A DNA stretch of 64,000 nucleotides from Candidatus Portnoybacteria bacterium (GTDB lineage: Bacteria > Patescibacteriota > Minisyncoccia > Portnoybacterales > GWB1-42-6), in NCBI GenBank assembly GCA_028688325.1, contig JAQTYI010000001.1:302620-366619 (forward strand), given 5' to 3'. The notes under the pieces are model-generated. The model was not told the origin of the DNA and did no database searches. It was given only the letters and a program-made list of their open reading frames with translations. The translations under genes were made by a program, and so were the position numbers. Positions 51,820 to 59,250 of the stretch are shown piece by piece. Every line of letters starts with the position of its first letter. Position 1 is the first letter of the stretch.

Positions 51820-53442
51820 ATGATCCGTTCCCAAATCCAAAAACTCCTCAACCTTCCCGACGCCGCGATCGACCGGCCGGAAAATCCCGGCTTTGGCGAC
51901 TATTCCACCAACGCGGTTTTGAAATTGGCAAAAAAAGAAGGCAAAAATCCGATGATTTTAGCGCAAGCGTTGGTTCAAAAAATATTGGTGTCTGACACCC
52001 ATATATTTTCCAAAATTGAAGTTGCTTCGCCCGGGTTCATCAATTTCACGCTGTCCAACGAATTTTTCCGCCAACAGGTGGCGGAAATTTTAAAAGCCAA
52101 AGAAAATTACGGCGCAATAAATATCGGCGAAAATAAAAAAGTGCAGGTGGAATTCATTTCCGCCAACCCCACGGGCCCGTTAACGCTGGGCAACGGCCGG
52201 GGCGGATTTTTCGGCGATGTGCTGGCCAATGTGCTGGCGCGCGCCGGTTTTGATGTTAAACGGGAATATTTTGTCAACGACGCGGGTTATCAGGTGGAAG
52301 TGCTGGGTCATTCCGTGCTCAAAGATGAGCAGGCGCAATACAAAGGCGAGTATATCGATAAATTGAACAAAAAATTCATTTGCTGGCTCTGTTCCAAAGA
52401 TCCAAAAAAAGTCGGCCAAAAAGCCGCCAAATATATTTTGGCAAAAATGCTCCAGCCCACCATCAAAGACAGGATGAAAATAAAATTCGATGAATGGGTT
52501 TCGGAAAACTCGTTGCGGCTGTCGGGTGAAACGGATGAAGTTTTGCAAATGCTCAAAGCCAAGAACTTAACCTACGAACAAGACGGCGCCGTGTGGTTTA
52601 AGTCCACCCAATTTGGCGACGATAAAGATCGCGTGCTGATAACTTCCGCCAAAGACGGCAAAAGCGCCGCCGCCACCTACCTTTTGCCGGACGCCGCTTA
52701 TCATTACAAAAAATTCGTCAAAGATAAATTCGATAAAGTCATCAATGTTTGGGGCGCGGATCACCACGGCTATATTTTGCGTTTGCAGGCCGTCAAAAAA
52801 GCCCTGGATATGCCGGGGGAGCTGGAAGTCGTTATCATGCAGCTGGTGCGGCTGATGGTCAAAGGCCAGGAAGTTAAAATGTCCAAGCGCTTGGGGACAT
52901 ATATAACCCTGGATGAATTGCTGGAAGAAATTCCGCTGGATGTGGCGCGATTTTTCTTTTTGATGCGCGCGCCCAACACCCATATGGACTTTGACCTGGA
53001 CCTGGCCAAGGAACAGTCGCAAAAAAATCCGGTCTATTATGTCCAATACGCCTACGCGCGGATCTGCAGTATTCTACGAAAAGCATCGGAAAGTGGTTTC
53101 CCTCCTTCAGGAGGGGTTAGGGGAGATGTTGTATCCGACTATAAGCTACAAGCTAACAGCTATCAGCTACTCTCCCATCCATCAGAATTGGCATTAATCA
53201 AACAACTCATCCGCCTGCCAGAAATCATCGCCGACACCGCCACCGACTATGGTGTCCATCGCCTGCCCCAATACTCCATGGATCTTGTTCGCAGTTTTCA
53301 TAAATTCTACGAGGACTGTAAGGTTATAGATGAGACAAATAAAGATTTAACTGTTGCCCGCTTAGCATTATGCGAGGCGACCAGAATAACCCTCAAGAAT
53401 ACTTTAGACTTGATGGGAATAAGCGCGCCAGAAAAGATGTAA
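51820..53442 (+). CDS. argS: Arginine--tRNA ligase with an in-frame family-2 repeat insertion
   Basis: N-terminal Add-1 domain. HIGH region (SANPTGPLTLGNGRG). KMSKS-like MSKRLG. Anticodon-binding DALR domain. Insert translated as SGFPPSGGVRGDVVSDYKLQANSYQLL. Confidence 0.9.
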   Translation: MIRSQIQKLLNLPDAAIDRPENPGFGDYSTNAVLKLAKKEGKNPMILAQALVQKILVSDTHIFSKIEVASPGFINFTLSNEFFRQQVAEILKAKENYGAINIGENKKVQVEFISANPTGPLTLGNGRGGFFGDVLANVLARAGFDVKREYFVNDAGYQVEVLGHSVLKDEQAQYKGEYIDKLNKKFICWLCSKDPKKVGQKAAKYILAKMLQPTIKDRMKIKFDEWVSENSLRLSGETDEVLQMLKAKNLTYEQDGAVWFKSTQFGDDKDRVLITSAKDGKSAAATYLLPDAAYHYKKFVKDKFDKVINVWGADHHGYILRLQAVKKALDMPGELEVVIMQLVRLMVKGQEVKMSKRLGTYITLDELLEEIPLDVARFFFLMRAPNTHMDFDLDLAKEQSQKNPVYYVQYAYARICSILRKASESGFPPSGGVRGDVVSDYKLQANSYQLLSHPSELALIKQLIRLPEIIADTATDYGVHRLPQYSMDLVRSFHKFYEDCKVIDETNKDLTVARLALCEATRITLKNTLDLMGISAPEKM

Positions 53443-54485
53443 TGGGTGATTATACAATACAATTTTTATTGAATATTATGTCAAAAATCAAAGAATTGTT
53501 AGCGGGTAAAAATGATCAAATCGACTACGAAAAAATAGTTAATGAATACCCCTGGATAATAAAGAAAGGGCAGAATTGTATTTTAAGCCCGGATAGCGAT
53601 GGTTTGTTATGCGGATTATTTATGTCGTCATATTTGGGATGGAAGATAAAAGGGTTTTACGACGGTAAGGTTATGCTGTTAGATAAAAAAACCTCTGTTA
53701 AAGATTGTATTTTTTTAGATATGGAAATTTTTAGAGAAGAGATAAAGAGTGTTGGGCATCATATGGTGCAATTTAATAAAAAGAAAAAGCCCAGCAATTG
53801 GGATAATTTTAAAAATTGTATTCAGGCGAATAATTTAAGAAACTACGATGGCTATAATGATTTTCGTCTAAAATATCCCTTGGCCACAATTCATTTATTA
53901 ATGGGAATAGTTGGTTCAAAAATAAAATTGACGATTCCAAAAACTGCAATTTGTCCACTGCTTTATGTCGATGGCGTGTTTAAAAATTTATTTAGCTATC
54001 CTGAGAACTGCATTGATTGGTTAAGATATCTGAAAGCAGATTTGAGCGCCAACAAATTGAACGATATATTTTTTAACGAACATTATTCTGTTTATGATTT
54101 AATGCTTGCCTTGAAGGATTTTTTCACAAGGATTGACGAAATAAGCGACGGTCGAGGGAGAAATGATAAAATAAAAATTTCTGATTCAAAAGGAAACCCA
54201 ATCAATATTATTAAAAAAGATGATGTTTATGAAATTGATAAAGAAGAAAGTAAAAAGGCGATCATCTTTTTAGAAATTTTGTCGAAGTTAACTAAGTGGG
54301 GATATGATAAAAATGATTGGCAATGGAATAATTTAAAACTTTATCGTTTCAATAAAAGCAGTATTCAGCCAAGTAATAGAAATTTTGAAGAAATGATAAA
54401 AAACAATCCGCTGTCTTGGGCTATGACCAGCGGATTGGCGATAGAATATACCTTAGAAGATAAGAAAAATGCTCTATTAAAATAA
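53442..54485 (+). CDS. Hypothetical low-GC protein (347 aa) with a DHH-like acidic motif series. Possible nuclease partner of the adjacent methyltransferase
   Basis: ATG overlaps the argS stop (TAATG). ILSPDSDGLL...IFLDMEIF...VGHHMV resembles DHH motifs I to III, but spacing is atypical and the third motif has Gly in place of the usual Asp. Clearly lower GC than the flanking genes. Confidence 0.4.
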   Translation: MGDYTIQFLLNIMSKIKELLAGKNDQIDYEKIVNEYPWIIKKGQNCILSPDSDGLLCGLFMSSYLGWKIKGFYDGKVMLLDKKTSVKDCIFLDMEIFREEIKSVGHHMVQFNKKKKPSNWDNFKNCIQANNLRNYDGYNDFRLKYPLATIHLLMGIVGSKIKLTIPKTAICPLLYVDGVFKNLFSYPENCIDWLRYLKADLSANKLNDIFFNEHYSVYDLMLALKDFFTRIDEISDGRGRNDKIKISDSKGNPINIIKKDDVYEIDKEESKKAIIFLEILSKLTKWGYDKNDWQWNNLKLYRFNKSSIQPSNRNFEEMIKNNPLSWAMTSGLAIEYTLEDKKNALLK

Positions 54486-55925
54486 TGTTTTATTGAATAC
54501 ACCTTCTTCTTTTAGGCGTTTTTTTGCCAATTCACAGTATTCAGTTGATGTATCTATTCCAATGTAATTTCTATTTAATTGAATAGCAGCCAAGGCGGTT
54601 GTGCCGCTTCCAATAAATGGGTCTAAAACAACGCCATTTTCCGGGCAGAAGCATTGGATAAAGTCGAGGGGAAGTTTATCGGGAAATGTTGCCGGATGCT
54701 GGTGTTTAAGGCGAGTGCCATCTCCCGCCGTCAGATATTCCCAAATGGTGCCGCGACATTTAGTTGGGTTAATAGTGATCGGCCGAGTGGCAATCCTCAC
54801 GCCATTAGTAAGGCGAGTGCCTCCGCCGGTCAATGTTTTACCGCCGTGTTTTGAGGGAATTTTCAGGGGTTCCTTATTAAAGTATCGCGGCCTCTCTCCT
54901 TTTAGAAAAATCGGCATATATTCATGGTCAACGCGAAATCGTTTATTCCACCAGGCGCCCTCTGCGCCGTATTTTCTGTAAATAACCGTTTCGAATAATT
55001 TAAAGCCGGCATTATCAACCCAGTCCACTATTGTTTTAAACGAGGTTAGCGATTTGCCGAAGTTTTTTGTTTGATCCTGAATAACCATGGCGGCAATGCC
55101 GCCTTCTTTTAATACGCGATATATTTCTTTACCGGTAGCATGTAAATCAAAAGTAAATCCATTATATTTTCTGATTCCGTCATAGGGCGGGGAGGTGACA
55201 ACTAAATCAATTGAGTTATCAGGGATTTTTTTTAGTTCCGCAACTGAATCGCCACAAATAATTTTATTTAGAGGCAGCGCCCCATATTTTTTTGTTTCCT
55301 TTTGCGGCAATAACTCTTCTGCTTGTAGCTCCTTTTCGTTTTTTATTATATCTATAACAATACCTTGTATAGAAATTTCTCTGCCTTTCTTAATTATTAT
55401 TGGTTCAATGGTTTTGTTTGCCGGCTGTAAACGGATATACCCTTTTTCTTTATAGTATTTTTTTAGTGTTGCTTCACAACTATCTATAAGGGCTACTACT
55501 TTTTGTCCATTTTCGGCTGTTTTTTGTTGTCGCACTAAAACAATATCCCCGTCGTTTATATTCTCATCAATCATGCTGTTGCCAATTACACGAAGAGCAT
55601 AGACCTCCGATGACGGGGGAACCTTACTTTTTGGGATAGCGATCGTTTCTCTTTCTTGAATTGCCTCAATCGGCTGACCAGCCGCGATTTGTCCTAGTAG
55701 AGGTACTCTGACTAAGTGGGACGGTTCTGATATTGAAATCCCTCTTGCGCGTCCAGGAATTTTTTCTATGTATCCTTTATTTAGGAGCATATCAAAATGT
55801 TCGTGCGCAGTCGACGGAGAGATTCTAACTCGGCGAGCTATTTCTCGTTCTGTTGGGGCTACGCCATTTTTTAGTATGGCTTTATTTATAAGGTCTTTAA
55901 TTTGTTTTTGCCTTGGGGTAAGCAT
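54477..55925 (-). CDS. Fusion protein: complete LexA (winged helix-turn-helix plus S24 autopeptidase) joined to a C-terminal DNA amino-methyltransferase (N6-adenine/N4-cytosine, SPPY type)
   Basis: LexA helix-turn-helix MLTPRQKQIKDLINKAILKNGVAPTEREIARRV. Ala-Gly cleavage site IAAGQP. Catalytic Ser (VIGNSM) and Lys (EATLKKY). Then a linker. Methyltransferase motif IV DLVVTSPPY and motif I DPFIGSGTT. Confidence 0.75.
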   Translation of the reverse strand: MLTPRQKQIKDLINKAILKNGVAPTEREIARRVRISPSTAHEHFDMLLNKGYIEKIPGRARGISISEPSHLVRVPLLGQIAAGQPIEAIQERETIAIPKSKVPPSSEVYALRVIGNSMIDENINDGDIVLVRQQKTAENGQKVVALIDSCEATLKKYYKEKGYIRLQPANKTIEPIIIKKGREISIQGIVIDIIKNEKELQAEELLPQKETKKYGALPLNKIICGDSVAELKKIPDNSIDLVVTSPPYDGIRKYNGFTFDLHATGKEIYRVLKEGGIAAMVIQDQTKNFGKSLTSFKTIVDWVDNAGFKLFETVIYRKYGAEGAWWNKRFRVDHEYMPIFLKGERPRYFNKEPLKIPSKHGGKTLTGGGTRLTNGVRIATRPITINPTKCRGTIWEYLTAGDGTRLKHQHPATFPDKLPLDFIQCFCPENGVVLDPFIGSGTTALAAIQLNRNYIGIDTSTEYCELAKKRLKEEGVFNKTLF

Positions 55926-56095
55926 ATATATATTATACTATGTATACCCGAGCAAAACCCGAGCAGTTATCCACAGGAGAAGTATTGACAGTTTTTTATA
56001 CAGGTCTATACTTGAGTTGATAGAGTAGCTTAACAGACTAACAACTTTTCCTTTAAATCAGAGATTTTAATCAATAATTTATTAAATTAACTACC

Positions 56096-56353
56096 ATGAT
56101 TGAAGAAAATAATATTATAAACAAAGACATTTCCGAGCTTAACAAGCGATTGGGAGTAGTTATATCACTTCTTCTGCGTATGACACCAAGTGATAGGCCG
56201 AGTAGAAGCTTGAAGGAGCAGGTAGGGATTTTAGATGATCTTGGTATTCGTCCTCGCGATATAGCCGAAATCTTAGGTCGAACCCAGCCGCATATTAACA
56301 AAGAGCTAGTCGGGCTTCGTAGAGAAAAGCACAAAAAACATGAGCAAAAGTAA
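56096..56353 (+). CDS. Small helix-turn-helix protein, sigma-70 region-4-like (paralog A of six)
   Basis: ...LGVVISLLLRM...GIRPRDIAEILGRTQPHINKELVGLRR. Confidence 0.5.
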   Translation: MIEENNIINKDISELNKRLGVVISLLLRMTPSDRPSRSLKEQVGILDDLGIRPRDIAEILGRTQPHINKELVGLRREKHKKHEQK

Positions 56354-56588
56354 AAAGAATAAGCTATTTATTGATAAAGACTTGTCGCTTGCGCGCCTGG
56401 ATGCATTACTGGTCCTCTTAAGTGAACTATTATGTCAGCTTTCGAAAGATAAAGCATCTGCGAAAGGCGCTAGAGAAAAATCGGCTGTAATTCTTGTGTC
56501 TGGCGGAATGACGCAGGAGCGAGCCGCCAAAGTATTAGGTATGCAGAAAAAAACAGTCGTTGAAGCAATTAAAAATATAAAAATATGA
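56340..56588 (+). CDS. Small helix-turn-helix protein, sigma-70 region-4-like (paralog B)
   Basis: LARLDALLVLLSELL...GMTQERAAKVLGMQKKTVVEAIKNIK. Overlaps paralog A by 14 nt. Confidence 0.5.
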   Translation: MSKSKKNKLFIDKDLSLARLDALLVLLSELLCQLSKDKASAKGAREKSAVILVSGGMTQERAAKVLGMQKKTVVEAIKNIKI

Positions 56589-56809
56589 AAGACAAAAATC
56601 AAGATTTATTTGAACAAGTCTCAAAAAAGTTGAGTGCCCTAATAGCACTTTCGTTTATTGAAGATGTTTCAAAGATGACAAATGAAAAGGGCGTAGAAGT
56701 GCTTAACCGCTTTGGGTTAAGCAATCAAGATATCGCGAATATTATAGGCACCACTAAAAAAACAGTCGAGGTATTAAAAAGTCGTATTAAAAATAAAAAA
56801 ATAAAATAA
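56585..56809 (+). CDS. Small helix-turn-helix protein, sigma-70 region-4-like (paralog C)
   Basis: LSALIALSFI...GLSNQDIANIIGTTKKTVEVLKSRIKNKK, the closest of the six to the sigma region 4.2 consensus. Confidence 0.55.
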   Translation: MKDKNQDLFEQVSKKLSALIALSFIEDVSKMTNEKGVEVLNRFGLSNQDIANIIGTTKKTVEVLKSRIKNKKIK

Positions 56810-56810
56810 T

Positions 56811-57014
56811 ATGGATAATAAAATTATTAACGAGCTTAAAAATTTAAATGAGGTCGTAAAAGACTTATTTATATTTCTTATGTGTAGAGAGGGATTTGGT
56901 CAAAAGGAAATCAGAACTGTCTTTGGAAAAATAGATTGTGCAAGGATAACGAAAATTGCCTCGGGTATTAAAAAGGTTGCTGCGCAGAAAATTAAAAATG
57001 ATAAGAAAAAATAA
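56811..57014 (+). CDS. Small helix-turn-helix protein, sigma-70 region-4-like (paralog D)
   Basis: LNEVVKDLFIFLMCREGFGQKEIRTVFGKIDCARITKIASGIKK. Confidence 0.5.
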   Translation: MDNKIINELKNLNEVVKDLFIFLMCREGFGQKEIRTVFGKIDCARITKIASGIKKVAAQKIKNDKKK

Positions 57015-57015
57015 T

Positions 57016-57204
57016 ATGGCAAAAACAATTGGTAGACATCCCTTGGATAGAAAATTAAATAGAATTATTTATTTGCTTGAATCTCTTCTTGCTTTAGAGT
57101 TTAACCGAACCAATCTTGATCGTAATAAAATTCGTGCTCGTTTAAGTATTGATAAAGCAAAAGTAAATAAAATACTGGATGGTATCAAAAGATCGAATAA
57201 TTAA
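57016..57204 (+). CDS. Small helix-turn-helix protein (paralog E). Start moved to the ATG just after the stop of paralog D
   Basis: MAKTIGRHPLDRKLNRIIYLLESLLALEFNRTNLDRNKIRARLSIDKAKVNKILDGIKRS. Confidence 0.45.
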   Translation: MAKTIGRHPLDRKLNRIIYLLESLLALEFNRTNLDRNKIRARLSIDKAKVNKILDGIKRSNN

Positions 57205-57216
57205 AATAATGAAAAT

Positions 57217-57378
57217 ATGGACAAAAAAATAATAAAACTGCTTGAAGACATTAAAAAACTCATGATTCTTAATCTTGTTGAGCGCGGTATACAGGCGAGC
57301 GCCGTTGCTGGCATACTAAAAGTTACCAAGGGAACACTTAGTAAGATGGTGCCAGCTAGAAAGATTAAGAAGGGTTAA
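57217..57378 (+). CDS. Small helix-turn-helix protein (paralog F, 53 aa, below the ORF-track cutoff)
   Basis: Hand-translated MDKKIIKLLEDIKKLMILNLVERGIQASAVAGILKVTKGTLSKMVPARKIKKG*. Confidence 0.4.
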   Translation: MDKKIIKLLEDIKKLMILNLVERGIQASAVAGILKVTKGTLSKMVPARKIKKG

Positions 57379-57381
57379 TTT

Positions 57382-58248
57382 ATGTTTCATTCTCCAGTTA
57401 GGGTCACAGATACGCTTTCTAATTATAATGATCAGCTTGCAACAGCTGCGAAAATTTTAGGTCGCTCTAAAGTGAGAAGGCGAATTTTCGAGGCAATTTA
57501 TAGAGGTAAGAAAGAAATAAAGACTATTAAAGAGCTTATGAGATTTACTGGATATTCTCAAACTCATATTCTAAAAGAAGGTGGCAAGATGGATGGATTC
57601 TTGATCGAAAAAATTTCCAATGGATATAGAAAAAGAAAAGAATTTTCGCCGAGATATAGAGACATTATTGAGCTAGTAAAAAATAAGAAAAAATTAGAAA
57701 AATTATCAACTAAAACGCATCCAAAAACCGCTGTTAATATAGGGCGAGTCTCTGTCTCTTTTCCTATCTCGGCTCAAAATGCTCATTATATTACCATCGA
57801 CGATATAGGATCTTTTTCAAAGGTGAGGGGGGCGTTGGCAGGTTCTCCTGTTAAGGGTCTCAGGGAGAACGAAATCAAAGATCTTTTTAAAAGGATTCTG
57901 AAAGAAAAGGGGACATTTAAAGATTGGGGTGGAGAAAAAAGCGATTTATTTTCAACTCGATTAATTTTAAAATCGAAGCGTTTAAGATGTGCCATTGCTT
58001 TTAAAGGAAGAGGAACTAAAGGAAAACTAGTTCCTGCTAAAATGGGAAAGAATGGTGATCAAATTACTAGACTTTTTGATGAGCCAGCGGATTTATATCT
58101 AATTGTTTATAATGGACAGATTGATTCTTCAATAGTATCTCAAATGCAGGCCTTCGCTGTCGTTAAGGCGATTAGTGGCCAGACGGTTTATTATGGTGTA
58201 ATTGATGGGGCAGACTTGAGCCTAATTTTTGCTGCATATAAACAATAA
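57382..58248 (+). CDS. Winged-helix DNA-binding protein with a C-terminal domain of unknown fold (possible restriction-endonuclease-like domain)
   Basis: N-terminal helix-turn-helix RRRIFEAIYRGKKEIKTIKELMRFTGYSQTHILKE. C-terminal ...GGEKSDLF...RCAIAFKGRGTKGKLVPAKMGKNGDQITRL...DLYLIVYNGQ. Last gene of the low-GC island. Confidence 0.4.
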   Translation: MFHSPVRVTDTLSNYNDQLATAAKILGRSKVRRRIFEAIYRGKKEIKTIKELMRFTGYSQTHILKEGGKMDGFLIEKISNGYRKRKEFSPRYRDIIELVKNKKKLEKLSTKTHPKTAVNIGRVSVSFPISAQNAHYITIDDIGSFSKVRGALAGSPVKGLRENEIKDLFKRILKEKGTFKDWGGEKSDLFSTRLILKSKRLRCAIAFKGRGTKGKLVPAKMGKNGDQITRLFDEPADLYLIVYNGQIDSSIVSQMQAFAVVKAISGQTVYYGVIDGADLSLIFAAYKQ

Positions 58249-58315
58249 TGAAAATTAACTAGTATGGAAATCTATCGAAGTCTGACATCGGTAAATCGCT
58301 TGATTTTATTAAACC

Positions 58316-58915
58316 ATGGACCAAACTCAAAAGGATAAATTGCTTTTGGCGATAAAGGAGGAAGTTATCGCTTGCCAAAAATGCGGGTTGTATAAGAGTC
58401 GGGTTTTGCCAGTGGTGGGGCAGGGGAATCATGATGCGCAGGTTATGTTCATCGGCGAGGCGCCGGGGGCCAATGAGGCCAAAACAGGCGTGCCGTTTTG
58501 CGGCAGCGCCGGCAAGATTTTGGATCAGCTGCTGGCCTCGGTCGGCATCAAGCGGGAAGAGGTGTATATCGCCAATATCCTGAAAGACCGGCCGCCGGGC
58601 AACCGCGAGCCGGCGCCGGATGAGATTGCTGCCTGCACGCCGTATCTTTTGCGCCAGATCGCGATAATCAATCCCAAGATCATCGCCACGCTGGGAAACT
58701 ACTCAACGCATTTCATCCTGGATAAATTCGGGGTGCCGGAAAGCCAGAAGGGCATCAGCCAGCTGCGGGGCCGGAAATTTGCGGTTCAAGATCCTCAAAA
58801 CCAGAATTCTTACACCATCATTCCATTATTTCATCCCGCCGTCGCCGTCTACGACAACAGCAAGCTGGACACCCTGAAGCAAGATTTCAAAATCATCAAA
58901 GAGCATTTAAAATAA
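58316..58915 (+). CDS. Uracil-DNA glycosylase, family 4
   Basis: CQKCGLYKSRVLPVVGQGNHDAQVMFIGEAPGANE...PFCGSAG and HPAVAVYDN motifs. Confidence 0.85.
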   Translation: MDQTQKDKLLLAIKEEVIACQKCGLYKSRVLPVVGQGNHDAQVMFIGEAPGANEAKTGVPFCGSAGKILDQLLASVGIKREEVYIANILKDRPPGNREPAPDEIAACTPYLLRQIAIINPKIIATLGNYSTHFILDKFGVPESQKGISQLRGRKFAVQDPQNQNSYTIIPLFHPAVAVYDNSKLDTLKQDFKIIKEHLK

Positions 58916-58945
58916 CATCCTTACAAACTTGAGAATGTAAGGATG
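58913..58945. repeat. 33-bp hairpin and terminator unit (AACATCCTTACAAACTTGAGAATGTAAGGATGT). First of two direct copies that bracket the arsR-like gene
   Basis: Perfect stem CATCCTTACA / TGTAAGGATG. A near-identical copy lies at 59249-59281. Confidence 0.7.
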
Positions 58946-58962
58946 TGGTATATAATGAAAGT

Positions 58963-59250
58963 ATGAGAAAATTGAAGACCGCAAAACAAATGGAGCGGCA
59001 CTTGAAGGGAATGGCGAACCATTACCGGATAGAGATATTGTTTTCGATCGCCGCTCAAGACGGGATCACTTTGGAGGAGATAGTGAGAACTCTTGGCGCG
59101 AACGAGAAAACGATAGGCGAGCACACCCGGCGGCTTTTCCAGGCGGGGCTGATAGATAAAAAATACAAGGGAAAATTCGTGGAGCATAAATTGTCGCCCT
59201 ATGGAAAAACATTCGTCCGATTCTTGGATTCATTCCGCGCCACACAATAA
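58963..59250 (+). CDS. ArsR/SmtB-family winged-helix transcriptional regulator
   Basis: HYRIEILFSIAAQDGITLEEIVRTLGANEKTIGEHTRRLFQAGLI. Confidence 0.65.
   Translation: MRKLKTAKQMERHLKGMANHYRIEILFSIAAQDGITLEEIVRTLGANEKTIGEHTRRLFQAGLIDKKYKGKFVEHKLSPYGKTFVRFLDSFRATQ

Follow-up and report, generated by a model that had tools for sequence, protein, structure and literature searches.

The window analysed here, a stretch of 64,000 nt from the genome of a Candidatus Portnoybacteria bacterium (contig JAQTYI010000001.1), contains a compact cassette of seven genes, named A to G. They correspond to seven open reading frames (ORFs) of the ORF list, running in one direction (+ strand) between positions 56096 and 58248 with abutting or overlapping ends. 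Six encode small helix-turn-helix (HTH) proteins and the seventh a protein of 288 amino acids (aa). Such a layout of six tandem, co-directional small genes followed by a 288-aa gene had been proposed in an original prediction made from the DNA letters, and it is confirmed at these positions. The cassette is composed as follows.

56096-56353, + strand: gene A, 85 aa; four-helix HTH protein of subfamily A, usually the first gene of an array
56340-56588, + strand: gene B, 82 aa; member of the rare subfamily B, closest to C
56585-56809, + strand: gene C, 74 aa; subfamily C, resembling sigma-70 region 4.2 and LuxR
56811-57014, + strand: gene D, 67 aa; three-helix HTH protein of subfamily D
57016-57204, + strand: gene E, 62 aa from its ATG; three-helix HTH protein of subfamily E
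57217-57378, + strand: gene F, 53 aa; minimal three-helix HTH protein of subfamily F, usually last in an array and beside the effector gene
57382-58248, + strand: gene G, 288 aa; winged helix (residues ~27-105), linker and a PD-(D/E)xK-like domain (~126-288)

Successive genes are tightly packed, with overlaps of 14 nt (A/B) and 4 nt (B/C) and gaps of 1 nt (C/D and D/E), 12 nt (E/F) and 3 nt (F/G). The mechanically derived ORF of gene E opens at a TTG at 56956; the ATG at 57016 is the preferred start, backed by the gene call of the assembly and by the length of the orthologue in locus L009. The assembly's own calls (Ca. Portnoybacteria metagenome-assembled genome GCA_028710785.1) are identical for A-G. 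No internal promoter stands out within the array, and the only terminator-like site is one weak hairpin inside gene C. Judged from the sequence, A-G probably form a single operon with translational coupling.

The products of A-G are all basic (isoelectric points 9.8-11), and the G+C content (GC) of the cassette is 0.35 against 0.45 for the 64-kb window. As anticipated, the cassette lies in the annotation between argS on one side and the uracil-DNA glycosylase gene on the other, alongside a gene for a LexA-methyltransferase fusion and a 335-aa gene. The low-GC island that had been drawn from 53442 to 58250 is only partly borne out: the cassette is indeed GC-poor, but the island is composite, because its methyltransferase portion climbs to 0.48. 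Direct or inverted repeats bounding the island were looked for and none was found; nor is there an Rfam match in 53000-59000. Two short stretches within the array retain 72-80% nucleotide similarity, namely the starts of A and D (56103-56145 versus 56800-56842) and the C/D and D/E junctions (56786-56825 versus 56991-57030). They could reflect AT-rich low-complexity coding or traces of gene conversion inside the array.

The small genes form one ancient family

A family profile was seeded with the six window proteins alone and searched in loci gathered around homologues of G. It recovered 243 ORFs and converged at 300, among which 289 lie on the strand of the G homologue, nearly all of them directly upstream of it. 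In the 64-kb window, the same profile matches these six ORFs and no others. With such a recovery from six seeds, and such a strand bias, the small ORFs are real genes, beyond chance. Each has orthologues across phyla (30-77% identity overall), so that the lack of conservation named in the original prediction as grounds for its refutation is excluded.

Clustering of the family sequences yields six communities, and the window's A-F each fall in a separate one. Profile-profile comparison connects them (A-C 99.2%, D-E 98.8%, D-F 97.9%, E-F 97.7% and C-F 96.6%), with lower and more variable values (36-91%) for subfamily B, which has two known members, in the window and in L009. Pairwise BLASTP among the six is weak, the best pair (B-C) reaching E=4e-5, and paralogy is therefore demonstrable only via subfamily profiles. 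Collectively, A-F are ancient paralogues of one mini-HTH family divided into two clades (A/B/C and D/E/F), in agreement with the earlier view that they are too divergent to be recent duplicates.

The two clades differ in their HTH type. Proteins of the A/B/C clade have four helices and resemble LuxR or region 4 of sigma-70; within the A/C clade, Pfam matches are most often to Sigma70_r4_2 (22 of 36 members at E<=0.01, best 2.4e-7). For gene C itself, GerE (2.3e-4) and Sigma70_r4_2 (3.4e-4) both stay under the Pfam cut-offs, and its region 4 HTH (PF08281 / PF04545) scores 20.6 bits for a gathering cut-off of 25.7; some homologues come with a precomputed PF08281 annotation and a sigma-24 family name from their source. 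The best PHROG match of gene B is 'sigma factor' (E=1e-4). Proteins of the D/E/F clade are minimal three-helix HTHs with generic matches to HigA, NarL and DeoR. The F-clade profile weakly matches the HigA HTH, gene F has weak HTH_7 and HTH_23 matches in Pfam, and gene D, with no Pfam match when taken alone, is recognized by the family profile at 5.7e-13. None of D, E and F matches sigma region 4 in Pfam. A sigma region-4.2-like HTH, previously attributed to all six proteins, is thus retained, as a resemblance, for A, B and C and abandoned for D, E and F. Taken individually, the small proteins have Pfam HTH matches under threshold (none for D). Region 2 of sigma factors (Sigma70_r2, PF04542) has no match in any of A-G, and the small proteins (53-85 aa) are too short to hold it. 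Profiles of the small proteins, compared with PDB sequences, hit designed repeat proteins and unspecific HTHs and do not discriminate between HTH classes.

Where G is ~60% identical, A, C and F have orthologues at 40-63% identity (50-63% for A). In one locus (L081/L082 compared with window positions 57016-57204), the orthologue of E reaches 77% identity for 53% in G, and array members have seemingly been exchanged among cassettes. From these values, the small genes appear to be under purifying selection and the arrays to be partly mosaic.

The array accompanies G across phyla

Loci were gathered from genomes, metagenomes and exact-match look-ups. They include 64 non-redundant full-length G loci, 52 of which offer a complete upstream view. 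In 51 of these 52, G is immediately preceded on its own strand by one to six members of the family; in the last one, a four-gene array is oriented divergently. The number of upstream members is 0 in 1 locus, 1 in 3, 2 in 13, 3 in 20, 4 in 5, 5 in 6 and 6 in 4, answering positively the suggestion that copy number might vary in relatives. With six members, the window is at the top of the range and has the fullest subfamily set. Order is loosely fixed as A (B) C D E F, with A or C first, D and E in the middle and F last, next to G; subfamily B is seen beyond the window in L009 only. Packing is as tight as in the window, with a median gap of 3 nt over 163 junctions, 81% of them at 15 nt or less and 34% overlapping.

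Hosts are diverse and comprise Acidobacteriota, Dormiibacterota, Vulcanimicrobiota, Alphaproteobacteria (including the isolate Chelativorans salis), one deltaproteobacterium and, within the candidate phyla radiation (CPR), Jorgensenbacteria and Magasanikbacteria. Alphaproteobacterial and some other cassettes have an additional first gene. In L021, L022, L024, L025 and L027, ~900-1200 nt upstream of G, a winged-helix-like gene of 104-131 aa ('LLRAILATVARQTFPP...DGT.TQ.EIAK') replaces subfamily A.

Protein G combines a winged helix with a nuclease-like domain

Over 1100 homologues share 50-85% identity with protein G, and all of them lack Pfam domains. An exhaustive profile search of 1.84 billion proteins retrieved 1180 representatives at E<=0.001, of which 232 also pass E<=1e-30. 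The protein itself has no match in Pfam, PHROGs, PADLOC or NCBIfam and no PDB sequence match below E=0.08; Mrr_N and Mrr_cat give no match in Pfam or NCBIfam at E<=1. A P-loop reading of its 'KGRGTKGK' stretch was rejected, this glycine-rich segment not being kept in a sister family of ~350 aa.

Since fold searches with the whole protein are dominated by winged-helix matches, the C-terminal domain was modelled on its own. The fold search of this model finds the alpha/beta core of PD-(D/E)xK enzymes, with FokI and the BspD6I subunits as best structural matches and AF1548 (1y88), which we take to be an Mrr-like protein, among the best. The winged helix of the original prediction is thereby kept, and its unknown C-terminal domain becomes PD-(D/E)xK-like, as far as a model can tell. 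Conserved motifs of G are DWGGEKSD188, AIAFK208G, GKNGDQ and E234PA, and residues E162, E185, D188, K208 and E234 are invariant in the family, as is a peptide at the N-terminus. D188 and K208 are spaced as in D...(D/E)xK, with an invariant alanine (Ala206) at the position of the middle acid. Residues E162, E185 and E234 could stand in for this missing catalytic acid, and a nuclease activity of G, although putative, is plausible.

The sister family (340-390 aa, typically ~350) shares with G only the C-terminal domain (DWGGEKSD..FKG..GKxGDQ..EPA) and has a different N-terminal domain that finds no Pfam match. None of its ~29 loci has an HTH array. Its members (L030-L058 and L137-L139) come from Alphaproteobacteria, Micromonospora, Actinoplanes, Paceibacterota and one IMG/VR contig. 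The comparison defines a new restriction-endonuclease-like domain family (DWGGEKSD...FKG...GKxGDQ...EPA).

The effector behind the array is interchangeable

Homologues of A and C were collected without reference to G (818 proteins, all of 65-102 aa), and four of their places were looked up. In L145, an array A C E E F precedes a 284-aa protein with a C-terminal TIR_2 domain (5.8e-19), whose residues 21-107 match the winged helix of G (hhalign 93.7%, E=1.9e-7). This defines a winged-helix adaptor common to nuclease and TIR effectors. In L146 (5001-6243), A C E E F is intact, the gene for the winged-helix TIR protein is cut to a 72-aa stub and an IS200-type Y1 transposase adjoins; here, the array outlasts its effector. 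In L147, A D E A is followed by a Hypoth_Ymh HEPN protein (8.4e-17), then by F and G; the element that holds them also encodes a relaxase, a primase and an MmeI-type enzyme. In the fourth place, beside a type I restriction-modification (RM) operon, three small genes stand with a 299-aa protein of about the size of G and an SLFN_AlbA_2 protein.

Arrays with HEPN proteins behind them also occur in loci collected through G. Main or extra arrays lie ahead of HEPN proteins matching PADLOC PDC-M34B in L009, L092 and L024 (E=1e-24 to 2e-16), and ahead of a HEPN protein matching Hypoth_Ymh in L104 (1.8e-15). Among the proteins compared with PADLOC, only accessory HEPN proteins of such other loci match, to PDC-M34B. 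A search with the N-terminal domain of G brought just 22 proteins, mostly fragments and one with TIR, and thus no effector catalogue. Altogether, the effector behind the array is interchangeable and can be restriction endonuclease (REase)-like, TIR or HEPN.

A promoter-like site and candidate operators precede gene A

The region upstream of gene A contains the following elements.

55985-56012, + strand: sigma-70-type promoter-like site TTGACA-16-TATACT
55980-55989 / 56004-56013: inverted repeat AAGTATTGAC/GTCTATACTT, overlapping both hexamers (-35 and -10) of the promoter-like site
56025-56034, + strand: conserved cis element GTAGCTTAAC, candidate operator
56087-56094, + strand: its inverted counterpart TTAACTAC, just ahead of the ATG of gene A

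The promoter-like site has 11 of 12 consensus matches, is the best in 55800-58400 and is assigned its putative function from the consensus alone. The GTAGCTTAAC pattern occurs once in the window in this orientation. Across loci, GTAG(N0-1)TTAA[GC] is found 71-78 nt before the start of A in 9 of 30 non-redundant arrays beginning with A, for a background of 4 matches in 413 kb, which corresponds to an enrichment of ~200-fold at a fixed position. Inverted CTTAA..CTAC elements just before the start codon are seen in other A-first loci, one of them with the strict pattern. Arrays that begin with C (L004, L063, L084, L076 and L070) have instead a palindrome, ACTAACG...CATTAGT, over the -10 element. 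This hints that the operator switches with the first gene of the array, and the upstream motifs are suggestive of autoregulation through operator binding. The inverted repeat AAGTATTGAC/GTCTATACTT, located between gene A and the divergent LexA-methylase gene, could be a second candidate operator, possibly of LexA type.

Genomic surroundings

RM, toxin or mobile-element genes lie within 8 kb of the cassette in 9 of 12 annotated contexts (raw count). They include type I RM operons, ParE, IS1595, a serine recombinase, an integrase, a relaxase, SLFN_AlbA_2, MmeI and a Y1 transposase. For example, the cassette adjoins ParE and IS1595 in L004/5 and a large helicase-nuclease gene in L141; in L003, it is surrounded by a type I RM operon that also has a Fic gene and represents another system. 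In L140, it belongs to an integrative element with type I RM, a serine recombinase, SLFN_AlbA_2, a D12 methylase, a relaxase and an integrase. A methyltransferase gene adjoins the cassette in the window; none is adjacent in L004/5, L007, L142 and L143, so that it is not a conserved partner.

The cassette was not found in the plasmid, phage and viral collections searched. The plasmid and phage collections contain distant relatives of the C-terminal domain of G only, including one in a Rhodococcus plasmid whose context is uninformative. Scans of viral contigs gave one distant match to this domain and none for subfamily F, the A/C alignment being too divergent for scanning.

A putative conflict cassette

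The common front end, the REase-like, TIR and HEPN domains behind it, the small size, the horizontal spread and the defence-type neighbourhoods together lead us to read A-G, on sequence, predicted structure and gene neighbourhood, as a compact, self-regulated and horizontally transferred conflict cassette, acting in defence or as an addiction/toxin module. The HTH array and the winged helix would control or sense, and the C-terminal domain would act. We assign this reading a probability of about 0.55. Patchy distribution across phyla and low GC agree with a cassette that moves horizontally. Swappable effectors in defence or mobile surroundings, seen here as raw counts, are a hallmark of defence systems. 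Probably, the cassette is an undescribed defence or addiction system and not a set of sigma-factor fragments.

A possible mechanism relies on a division of labour. The front end would consist of the anciently diverged mini-HTH paralogues and of the winged helix at the start of the last protein, and the effector would be the C-terminal domain of that protein, REase-like here and TIR in other loci, with HEPN proteins sometimes added. Bound near the promoter to the inverted pair of GTAG-TTAAG motifs, the HTH proteins would repress the operon that encodes them. Produced together with the effector through translational coupling, they may keep it silent or poised, presumably by contact. A trigger, either infection or loss of the cassette, would free the effector, which in the window would cut DNA; its nuclease activity, toxicity and anti-phage role are all putative.

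Several observations weigh against this reading. One repressor suffices for autoregulation, and the need for 2-6 ordered paralogues is not accounted for. A-F have no obvious extension past the HTH domain able to neutralise a toxin. The strict upstream motif is restricted to 9 of the 30 A-first loci. In L007, L142 and L143, the cassette stands alone between housekeeping genes, with no defence or mobile genes near. Finally, PADLOC-DB v2 gives no significant match for A-G, nor for 36 A/C homologues.

A bolder version, clearly less probable and put forward tentatively, makes the paralogue array itself the sensing principle. A hetero-oligomer of different mini-HTH proteins would join the winged-helix adaptor as the sensor of a new class of immune system. 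Detection of invader DNA, or of a phage protein attacking transcription factors, would then switch on the fused effector (REase-like nuclease, TIR NADase or HEPN RNase).

Among other explanations, the one that survives best, although unlikely, is a split nuclease that reads a DNA sequence. The small HTH proteins would be DNA-recognition subunits that join the winged helix of G, their number and kind setting the target, by analogy with FokI, in which three HTH-containing subdomains read DNA ahead of the cleavage domain. FokI and the BspD6I subunits as top structural matches of the C-terminal domain, the basic character of all seven proteins, a translational coupling suggestive of roughly equal amounts of each, the conserved array order and small proteins evolving about as slowly as G all speak for such an enzyme. 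The model is weakened by the TIR and HEPN effectors that follow the same arrays, since such effectors do not cleave DNA at a read sequence. Moreover, with no conserved methyltransferase, only a foreign or modified target would leave self-DNA safe, and orthologues are conserved rather than diversified.

A role of the small proteins as mimics of sigma region 4 is less probable still. As decoys or anti-sigma proteins, one of the roles first envisaged for them, they would imitate the part of sigma attacked by phage proteins or compete for RNA polymerase, and their capture by a phage protein would free the effector. The frequency of Sigma70_r4_2 matches in the A/C clade, the sigma-24 family name given to some homologues with PF08281 and the compatibility of swappable effectors with a guard or decoy logic favour it. 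However, it suits the A/C clade alone, D, E and F not being region-4-like; the window proteins fall under Pfam cut-offs, region 2 is absent and the DNA motif at a fixed upstream position points to ordinary DNA binding. Direct support for this role was not found.

Even less speaks for A-G as the module that controls and moves a small mobile element, with the HTH proteins regulating or helping its movement and G, as an endonuclease of nicking or homing type, spreading the cassette. Low GC, the isolated position between housekeeping genes in some loci and the recombinases, transposases and relaxases adjoining in several others are in line with this proposal. Yet the borders show no flanking direct or inverted repeats, the cassette itself has no integrase or transposase and was not found in the plasmid, phage and viral collections searched, and a mobility role is meaningless for the TIR and HEPN variants. 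Finally, that the small ORFs are chance frames in AT-rich DNA or decaying functionless remnants, as their shortness, AT-richness and sub-threshold Pfam matches could suggest, is refuted by conservation, with cross-phylum orthologues at 30-77% identity, 289 of 300 profile ORFs on the effector strand and conserved order and coupling.

If the conflict-cassette reading is correct, A-G represent a new family of compact defence or addiction cassettes (~1.5-2.3 kb, with some 1200 different effector representatives in public data) that occurs in soil Acidobacteriota, in Alphaproteobacteria and in several candidate phyla, among them small-genome CPR bacteria. It raises the question of why one effector requires several distinct mini-HTH partners. 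With Chelativorans salis as a cultured carrier, experiments are feasible.

Neighbouring genes in the window

Two genes accompany the cassette in the window, as a companion pair not encountered among the other annotated loci.

54477-55925, - strand: LexA-methyltransferase gene
53370/53478-54485, + strand: ORF of 335-371 aa

The first, divergent from the HTH array, joins a complete LexA (DNA-binding domain and S24 self-cleaving peptidase) and an N6/N4 DNA methyltransferase in one protein (Pfam E=1e-17, 5e-31 and 1.5e-39). Such a methylase linked to an SOS repressor is unusual in its own right. The second lies in the stretch of lowest GC (~30%), and its 3' end runs 9 nt into the convergent methyltransferase gene. 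It has no match in Pfam, NCBIfam, PADLOC, PHROGs or PDB sequences and may be the restriction partner of the adjacent methyltransferase gene.

Comparison with known systems

Literature searches on tandem HTH arrays, stand-alone region-4 proteins and PDC-M34 brought nothing relevant. The absence of precedent claimed for the array is upheld, within the literature searched and in four hidden Markov model libraries (Pfam, NCBIfam, PADLOC and PHROGs), and an ordered array of 2-6 single-domain HTH paralogues has no counterpart found among described systems. Individual features of the cassette are nevertheless reminiscent of several known systems.

In RM operons regulated by C proteins (such as C.PvuII and C.AhdI), a single small HTH gene of the Xre family stands upstream of the nuclease gene and is co-transcribed with it. 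The cassette likewise has its HTH genes directly upstream of a nuclease-like gene, operator-like inverted repeats at the promoter and presumed autoregulation. It differs by its 2-6 non-Xre HTH genes, the lack of a conserved methyltransferase and effectors that may be TIR or HEPN. Protein G resembles type IV restriction enzymes of the Mrr type, by its winged helix joined to a PD-(D/E)xK domain, its similar size and its independence from a methyltransferase. Unlike them, it has no Mrr_N or Mrr_cat match, an alanine as middle catalytic residue and an obligatory link to an HTH array.

Type II and tripartite toxin-antitoxin modules include examples with HTH antitoxins (HigBA, Xre-RES and paaR-paaA-parE). 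The cassette is similarly compact, coupled, mobile and probably autoregulated, with HTH genes first and a toxin-like enzyme last, and its insertion sites are defence islands or gaps between housekeeping genes. In contrast to these modules, it has up to six HTH genes, no visible toxin-binding extension and an effector with its own winged helix.

The A, B and C proteins share the helix pattern and motif (e.g. GLSNQDIANIIGTTKKTVEVLKSR) of sigma-70 region 4 and LuxR-GerE, but are stand-alone proteins of 65-100 aa with neither region 2 nor a receiver domain, and D, E and F are plain three-helix HTHs. As in CBASS, Avs, Thoeris-type TIR systems and the PADLOC candidate PDC-M34, one front end serves varied effectors (REase-like, TIR and HEPN). 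In the cassette, this front end is a mini-HTH array, and not a cyclase, a STAND NTPase or a SIR2/TIR sensor. The general kind, a toxic effector controlled by HTH proteins in a mobile cassette, is already known, and it is the architecture that is new.

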